DNA of 64,000 bases, from NCBI RefSeq assembly GCF_044324785.1, contig NZ_CP172127.1; one strand, given 5' to 3'. This stretch comes from Escherichia coli. Lineage in GTDB: Bacteria; Pseudomonadota; Gammaproteobacteria; Enterobacterales; Enterobacteriaceae. The number at the start of each line of letters is the position of its first letter. Position 1 is the stretch's first letter. The notes under the pieces are model-generated. The model was not told where the DNA came from. It did not search any database and saw only the letters and a list, made by a program, of their open reading frames with translations. Of this stretch, positions 30,464-30,806 are shown piece after piece. The translations under genes were made by a program, and so were the position numbers.

Positions 30464-30736
30464 ATGGACAATAGAACAATTACTCTGCAGGAATTACTCG
30501 AGTACATGTCAATGCTTCGAGACGACATGAATGCTCTCACGGTTGCATTTTCATATCTGGCTTCATCGCTTCCTAAGGAACAGATGATACAAATACTGGC
30601 ATTCATTCATTTTGAATCAAATAATTCCAGATGGTCTTCAGAACAGCAGAAATCTTTCAAATGGCTAGCATCACTACTGGAGGGCTGTTATACAGTTCAC
30701 ACAAACATTTTTGATATACCATCAAAGAACCACTAG
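30464..30736 (+). CDS. hypothetical small protein (90 aa)
   Basis: ATG 30464 with GAGGAG 6 nt upstream; followed by intrinsic terminator. Confidence 0.4.
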   Translation: MDNRTITLQELLEYMSMLRDDMNALTVAFSYLASSLPKEQMIQILAFIHFESNNSRWSSEQQKSFKWLASLLEGCYTVHTNIFDIPSKNH

Positions 30737-30778
30737 TACATTATGATACATTCCCTCTGAAATATATTTCTACTTTGA

Positions 30779-30806
30779 GCGCCTCTGACTTTATGAGGCG
30801 CTTTGT
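30779..30806 (+). terminator. rho-independent terminator
   Basis: GCGCCTC ... GAGGCGC stem followed by TTTGT. Confidence 0.5.

Follow-up and report, generated by a model that had tools for sequence, protein, structure and literature searches.

A short open reading frame (ORF) lies next to iha in a chromosomal island of Escherichia coli (assembly GCF_044324785.1, contig NZ_CP172127.1), within a stretch of 64,000 nucleotides referred to here as the window. It had been described in an initial annotation as a stand-alone gene of 90 codons, with a strong ribosome-binding site, a terminator of its own and no recognisable domain, and its position implied a tie to iha. The locus thus raises the questions of whether this ORF is a gene, where it comes from, and what its product might do beside, or apart from, iha.

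The ORF, its product and its expression signals

The ORF runs on the forward strand (30464-30736) from an ATG at position 30464 to a TAG stop codon at 30734-30736 and comprises 90 codons. The proposed gene is confirmed by the PGAP annotation of identical genomes, where exactly the same CDS is called as hypothetical protein WP_000370415.1; the name "Ybl58" originates from UniRef, where it is attached to one identical copy. A second in-frame ATG is present at 30452, overlapping the Shine-Dalgarno sequence, but position 30464 was retained as the start because the N-terminus of the family is a conserved MDN. Since ORFs of 90 to 170 aa, many of them spurious, occur in the same ORF list, a length of 90 aa is not above chance, and the status of the ORF as a gene therefore rests on comparative evidence.

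This evidence was obtained by comparison with four phage alleles. Over the helical core, dN/dS ranges from 0.16 to 0.30 for a dS of ca. 0.9-1.2, and the differences at codon positions 1, 2 and 3 number 11-16, 12-16 and 34-37, respectively. The forward frame is the only one open in all homologues; coding on the antisense strand, which displays the same wobble bias, was considered and rejected, stops being present in eight of nine homologues (four stops in the window). Judged by these comparisons, the ORF is a real protein-coding gene under purifying selection.

Concerning the product, the structure prediction suggested with the initial annotation was carried out and gave a confident three-helix AlphaFold2 model without structural relative. 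The same model was obtained with one sequence (pLDDT 82.9) or with 28 (81.6), with helices at residues 8-35, 38-52 and 59-83, residues 81-90 forming a disordered tail. Neither a sequence search of the PDB nor a fold comparison of the model with solved structures yielded a match. The protein is acidic, with a pI of 5.45 vs. 4.6-5.2 for most family members, and the reported lack of a signal peptide holds, the product being predicted as soluble and cytoplasmic. Pfam DNA-binding families, helix-turn-helix (HTH) domains included, were found in none of the 28 members, and the ORF protein carries no DNA-binding, enzymatic or catalytic motif. For an acidic helical protein of 90 aa devoid of both HTH and catalytic motif, DNA binding or an enzymatic activity is unlikely.

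As for the expression signals, the Shine-Dalgarno sequence GAGGAG (30454-30459, forward strand) is real, although its allegedly optimal spacing was overstated: it lies 4 nt from the ATG, on the short side, vs. 6 nt for the AGAGGA of the phage alleles. A candidate -10 hexamer, TATAAT (30441-30446, forward strand), aligns with TACAAT or GACAAT in the phage alleles and would give a leader of ca. 10 nt beginning at the Shine-Dalgarno sequence, but a good -35 is absent, and a sigma-70 consensus scan reported no promoter just 5' of the ORF. The GC content here is 38% vs. 51% for the window. Hence, of the independent transcription unit originally proposed, the genuine stand-alone coding gene stands, whereas a promoter is not demonstrable from the sequence. 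The relatives of the ORF, repeatedly encountered as single genes opposite prophage late operons and at differing positions, would nevertheless require transcription signals of their own.

Downstream of the ORF, a hairpin followed by a short U tail gives a terminator-like structure on the forward strand (30777-30806). The hairpin itself (30777-30803) has 9 bp and a 9-nt loop, with a folding energy of -16.1 kcal/mol (z = -4.0), and one out of 200 shuffled sequences folds equally well. When the 7-bp G+C core is taken as the stem, the tail is reduced to UUUG, and a consensus terminator scan did not report the structure. What had been presented as a clean intrinsic terminator is thus a stable hairpin with a poor tail. 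The sole site passing the terminator scan between 30000 and 31100 is located at 30957-30977 on the reverse strand, between the ORF module and a scrap of insertion sequence (IS).

Phage lysis-cassette DNA around the ORF

Searches of Pfam and NCBIfam with the ORF protein gave nothing above threshold, in line with the initial annotation, which had however missed both the protein family and the scrap of phage lysis cassette in which the gene is embedded. The protein belongs to PHROG 2411 (HMM match E 5.6e-34, residues 1-83 of 90), as do the distant relatives P0015, P0018 and P0021 (E 1e-13 to 1e-19); RefSeq lists it as a hypothetical protein, and its kind is not new. A match to DUF6887 (E 0.022), seen in only two of 28 members, was dismissed. 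None of five members tested matched PADLOC anti-phage defence models above threshold, the only hit being that of one member to PDC-M60B (E 0.034). A literature search revealed no mention of ybl58, WP_000370415 or phrog_2411.

A word-indexed homologue search returned identical copies only, and the relatives were retrieved by tblastn, on phages and plasmids, and by an exhaustive HMMER search. Tblastn revealed relatives with 57-66% identity in the E. coli phages phiSTEC1575-Stx2k, Chlobot and vB_EcoS-783R2 and in one phage-plasmid, and others on E. coli plasmids. These plasmids number 75; the majority were typed as conjugative, and the single one inspected is IncF. The HMMER search and a profile search extended the family to ca. 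98 clusters, with identities down to 30%, in E. coli, E. albertii, Shigella, Citrobacter, Atlantibacter, Yersinia, Serratia and Sodalis; all organisms named are Enterobacterales, except for one partial sequence labelled Pseudomonas sp. Among 28 family sequences, L18, F29 and F65 are invariant, and conservation reaches 90% or more at L25, A28, Y31, L32, T44, E51 and N54. Pattern scans found one E. coli locus in genome contigs (alignment A4) and three loci in viral contigs (alignment A5). With the PHROG 2411 prophage proteins (WP_001351274.1, and WCJ00165.1 of phiSTEC1575-Stx2k), the window protein shares its length, the AFSYL and ES.N motifs, F65 and the three predicted helices. It is nevertheless only 57-66% identical to them, and its 15 C-terminal residues are unrelated to theirs.

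In E. coli phages, the gene order is holin S (class II), ydfR, the ORF on the opposite strand, lysozyme R and Rz, with the 3' ends of the ORF and ydfR overlapping by 35 bp. Of 5426 complete E. coli genomes, 1130 contain this full cassette, with ORF homologues of 57-66% identity; the type strain is among them, and BL21-AI has a phage-type copy beside rrrQ. Other prophages lack the ORF: in K-12 Qin, ydfR and rrrQ overlap by ATGA, while in Sakai Sp9 the gene for the 114-aa YdfR and R are 50 bp apart, the latter prophage still keeping about the last 27 nt of the ORF. Alignment of Sp9 with the phage-plasmid L008 defines an indel of 308 bp (L008 3940-4247), made of 61 bp of upstream sequence, the Shine-Dalgarno sequence and codons 1 to ca. 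82, and ORF-bearing phages have 308-472 bp extra between ydfR and R. Beyond approximately codon 82, the ORF reads the YdfR tail in antisense until its stop, hence a variable and disordered C-terminus.

Outside this cassette, the family is found in varied surroundings, the distant members being 30-36% identical to the ORF. Homologues are located between tail genes M and L in Atlantibacter, between tail genes I and J in Yersinia, before a holin in Citrobacter, and in the early region of a Serratia prophage. In the sequencing-run assemblies L009 and L010, they lie on the opposite strand, upstream of two small uncharacterised genes by the terminase. Those of Sodalis and of metagenomes are on plain chromosome, and that of an E. 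coli IncF plasmid comes after an AIDA-like autotransporter gene. As a separate observation, the Serratia early region also carries, near the ORF homologue and on the opposite strand, a stand-alone gene with a RelA_SpoT domain (L023 3245-4336).

Following the concept of Hendrix and Juhala, a moron is an extra gene of a prophage that is independently expressed, bor of phage lambda being an example. A variable position, a single gene and an orientation usually opposite to the late genes are typical moron hallmarks, and the arrangement of the PHROG 2411 loci fits them. Moreover, as expected for a moron, the ORF separates late genes in some phages that directly adjoin in related ones.

The window copy resides in a genomic island and not in a prophage, but it is flanked by the same DNA as its prophage counterparts, here in the form of relics. 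Homology to the phage loci covers 30333-30681 (ca. 71% identity) and, after a gap, the hairpin (30779-30804). On the left, positions 30333-30354 (reverse strand) correspond to the 5' end of a phage-21-type lysozyme gene R, now dead, its start being lost by a CAT to TAT change on the forward strand. This relic is followed at 30355-30403 by a homologue of the R-upstream region, which contains the nearly invariant blocks TTTATC.GTTTCT and TGGATATGTT.ATC. Against Sakai Sp9, the R-side module aligns over 70 bp with 77% identity (E 2e-7). A role as moron promoter was considered for the conserved block at 30371-30403 and rejected: the block is present in Sp9, which has no ORF, and therefore belongs to the R-upstream region.

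On the right, a dead C-terminal relic of YdfR-tail or convergent-partner type occupies 30711-30803 on the reverse strand, a span that takes in the 3' end of the ORF as well as the hairpin. Its translation, KRLIKSEALKVEIYFRGNVS*CTSGSLMVYQ, aligns with the YdfR tail EKRPVILEAQDVLITYRGKLPGIITGSLKSPPKW, with an in-frame stop at 30741-30743, and tblastn matches it to YdfR residues 82-108 (E 0.037). The ORF hairpin is homologous to one located within the YdfR-tail coding sequence of phage cassettes (L005 1616-1641), although it is more stable in the window (-16.1 kcal/mol) than in the phages (-12.3 and -6.9 kcal/mol). As its stems correspond to the KR(P/L) and EA(Q/L) codons of the YdfR tail, the "terminator" either originated from the coding sequence of the convergent gene or is at the same time part of it. 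At the level of sequence homology, these alignments show that the segment 30333-30804 (ca. 470 bp) is a fragment of a lambdoid, phage-21-type lysis cassette and that the ORF is phage-derived. No allele intermediate between the island and phage forms was found among the 5426 genomes, which means an old capture or a donor lineage as yet unsampled.

In most phage contexts, a small late-strand gene overlaps the 3' end of the ORF homologue. In this partner, the N-terminus forms a coiled coil (MTLEQRVE.LE) and the C-terminus bears the motif (K/R)ITGSLxxP; it measures 63 aa in Citrobacter, 52 or 71 aa in Yersinia and 71 aa in Atlantibacter, an uncalled ORF of 62 aa being present in L009. The partner genes are at L020 5239-5430, L026 2677-2835, L034 3146-3361, L011 6261-6476 and, on the reverse strand, L009 ca. 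6270-6460; their only database match, a weak one, is to PHROG 1805. In E. coli lambdoid phages, the 114-aa YdfR carries the ITGSLxxP-type motif as its tail. In the window, on plasmids and on chromosomes, the ORF persists in the absence of this partner, which is therefore not required for the role of the ORF.

YdfR itself exists in two forms, with residues 1 to ca. 70 in common and unrelated C-terminal tails: one of 103 aa in K-12 Qin (L017 3555-3866), the other of 114 aa in many prophages (e.g. L006 5239-5583 and L018 2492-2836). According to a 2026 paper (PMC13232886), the K-12 protein binds the catalytic half of RNase E via its residues 1-72.

The iha gene and the surrounding island

The divergent neighbour of the ORF is iha (28052-30139, reverse strand), whose start is 324 bp away. 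The window iha is a rare allele: among the 5426 complete E. coli genomes, 59 have it at 99% identity or more, and chicken is the source of many of these. The common iha is 80-90% identical to it in 1536 records (ca. 86% among the matches listed), and 20 records fall between 90 and 95%. The ORF region, at 99% identity or more, was likewise found in 59 of the 5426 genomes, always with the rare iha allele, while it is absent from about 1,500 genomes bearing other iha alleles. Two canonical iha loci were inspected, those of the O157:H7 strain 2149 and of the bloodstream isolate GN03449. In both, the homology upstream of iha stops ca. 87 bp from the ATG, and tblastn detected no trace of the ORF.

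The search for otherwise identical islands lacking the ORF thus had a double outcome: every island with the rare allele has it, whereas it is not conserved across iha islands at large, and the implied tie to iha fails. A Fur-box-like site (30189-30207, 15 of 19 matches) lies ca. 50 bp upstream of the iha start, within the stretch shared with the canonical loci, and the phage-derived module begins only at 30333, apart from both this site and the iha-homologous upstream DNA. Taken together, the distribution and the layout of the locus indicate that the ORF is independent of iha.

The island around the ORF is decayed, with many pseudogenes and IS scraps. One of these, an IS/transposase scrap at 30980-31142, a few hundred bp downstream of the ORF, is found again in inverted orientation at L007 5637-5799 (87.7% identity), i.e. 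on a plasmid bearing another non-phage copy of the ORF. The IS-rich part of the island also contains three Rfam matches above the gathering score: the sRNAs isrN (38057-38199) and STnc490 (56660-56781), both on the reverse strand, and a group II intron domain (51666-51752) on the forward strand. Compared with strain SCU-115, positions 1-20792 of the window are not colinear, which indicates that the left flank of the island differs between carriers, while the remainder matches at 99.8-99.9%.

Possible role of the product

Several known systems can be set against the PHROG 2411 gene. Like lambda bor and similar morons, it appears as a small extra gene in or beside the lysis region, opposite the late operon; in both cases the gene is present or absent among related phages, and expression from the prophage via its own signals would be expected. 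Bor, however, is an exported lipoprotein, whereas the ORF protein has no signal peptide and no sequence similarity to it. Tail-region morons such as HK97 gp15 and the Cor proteins of HK022 and phi80 are superinfection exclusion proteins, i.e. membrane or outer-membrane proteins that block DNA entry. The distant relatives of the ORF are also single genes between tail genes (M and L, or I and J), and a similar role, of benefit to the lysogen, could plausibly be envisaged by analogy, although the ORF protein is acidic and predicted to be cytoplasmic. Finally, phages encode small acidic protein inhibitors, including anti-adaptors (IraM), anti-CRISPR and anti-restriction proteins. The ORF product would have in common with these a size of about 90 aa, an acidic, helical and non-catalytic nature and its coding by a mobile single gene, but it matches none of the solved structures in sequence or fold, and no aca-type regulator is adjacent.

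The best explanation, to which we assign a probability of about 0.65, is that the locus is a scrap of phage lysis cassette with an intact PHROG 2411 moron, the product of which acts by binding another protein. The identity of the scrap and of its moron is very probable, while the protein-binding part is a tentative proposal, somewhat more doubtful than not. According to this explanation, the cassette fragment of ca. 470 bp would have landed beside the rare iha allele in the decayed island. In prophages, the ORF would behave as a moron and presumably be transcribed on its own in the lysogen, possibly from a weak promoter including the TATAAT at 30441-30446 and with the hairpin serving as terminator. 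Its product, neither a DNA-binding regulator nor an enzyme, may bind a host or phage protein to the benefit of the lysogen, for instance by excluding other phages or by damping a late or partner protein.

Other readings were weighed against this one. The island ORF might be a functionless leftover that is not yet broken, its selection signal dating from its phage life. Both flanking phage genes are indeed dead, IS scraps and pseudogenes abound in the surroundings, and the 59 complete genomes, at least 99% identical at the ORF, provide no variation to test, so that selection after the capture is not measurable and the signal is that of the comparison with the phage alleles. Truncated alleles also exist at low frequency (a nonsense form of 56 aa on 22 contigs, plus one form of 75 aa and one with a frameshift), but the intact allele is present on at least 1000 contigs. 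Moreover, the ORF, its start and its Shine-Dalgarno sequence have remained intact despite a dS of ca. 1 vs. every phage allele, whereas the R and YdfR-tail relics have decayed. Both the Shine-Dalgarno sequence (GAGGAG vs. AGAGGA) and the hairpin (-16.1 vs. -12.3 kcal/mol) are stronger than in the phage, and other partner-less copies stay intact on plasmids and chromosomes. Such a leftover is unlikely. An improbable reading is that of a lysogen-expressed antidote or regulator of the convergent partner, acting either on the protein itself or by way of the two transcripts, whose 3' ends overlap; the island copy would then be an orphan. The recurrence of a convergent, 3'-overlapping gene (in Citrobacter, Yersinia, Atlantibacter, the L009 clade and, as the YdfR tail, in E. 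coli) and the location of the ORF hairpin within the partner coding sequence speak for it; yet the ORF is intact without partner in the window, on the 75 E. coli plasmids and in Sodalis-type chromosomes, Sakai Sp9 has the tail without the ORF, and there is no sign that the partner is toxic.

As for the possibility that the ORF serves iha, or adhesins more widely, as a divergently transcribed accessory or regulatory gene, the distance of 324 bp, the constant co-occurrence with the rare iha allele and the second non-phage copy directly after an AIDA-like autotransporter adhesin on plasmids would be in its favour. This reading was nevertheless rejected as very improbable, the ORF being missing with the other iha alleles (about 1,500 genomes) as well as at the two canonical loci, where homology is lost so close to the iha ATG. 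The separation of the phage module from the iha-homologous DNA and its Fur-box-like site, the residence of most family members in prophages with no adhesin nearby, and an acidic product without DNA-binding motif also stand against it. A more speculative extension of the moron reading, also improbable, is that the ORF and the convergent "MTLEQR...ITGSLxxP" gene form an undescribed two-gene moron cassette, widespread among lambdoid prophages of enterobacteria, in which the 3' ends of the genes overlap, the lysogen expressing one of them and the late operon the other; the orphan copies of the island, plasmids and chromosomes would have been domesticated for a host-side role.

New findings are the origin of the island copy, the cassette-defining indel and the recurrence of a convergent partner. 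A false lead is also removed, since the ORF is not a partner of Iha and the DNA beside the rare iha allele is phage debris. With its presence in ca. 21% of complete E. coli genomes, its purifying selection and its confident predicted fold without structural relative, the family appears as a reasonable, although not urgent, target for a catalogue of prophage moron functions. Should the two-gene cassette prove true, it could represent a new exclusion or lysis-control module, carried by a fifth of E. coli genomes.
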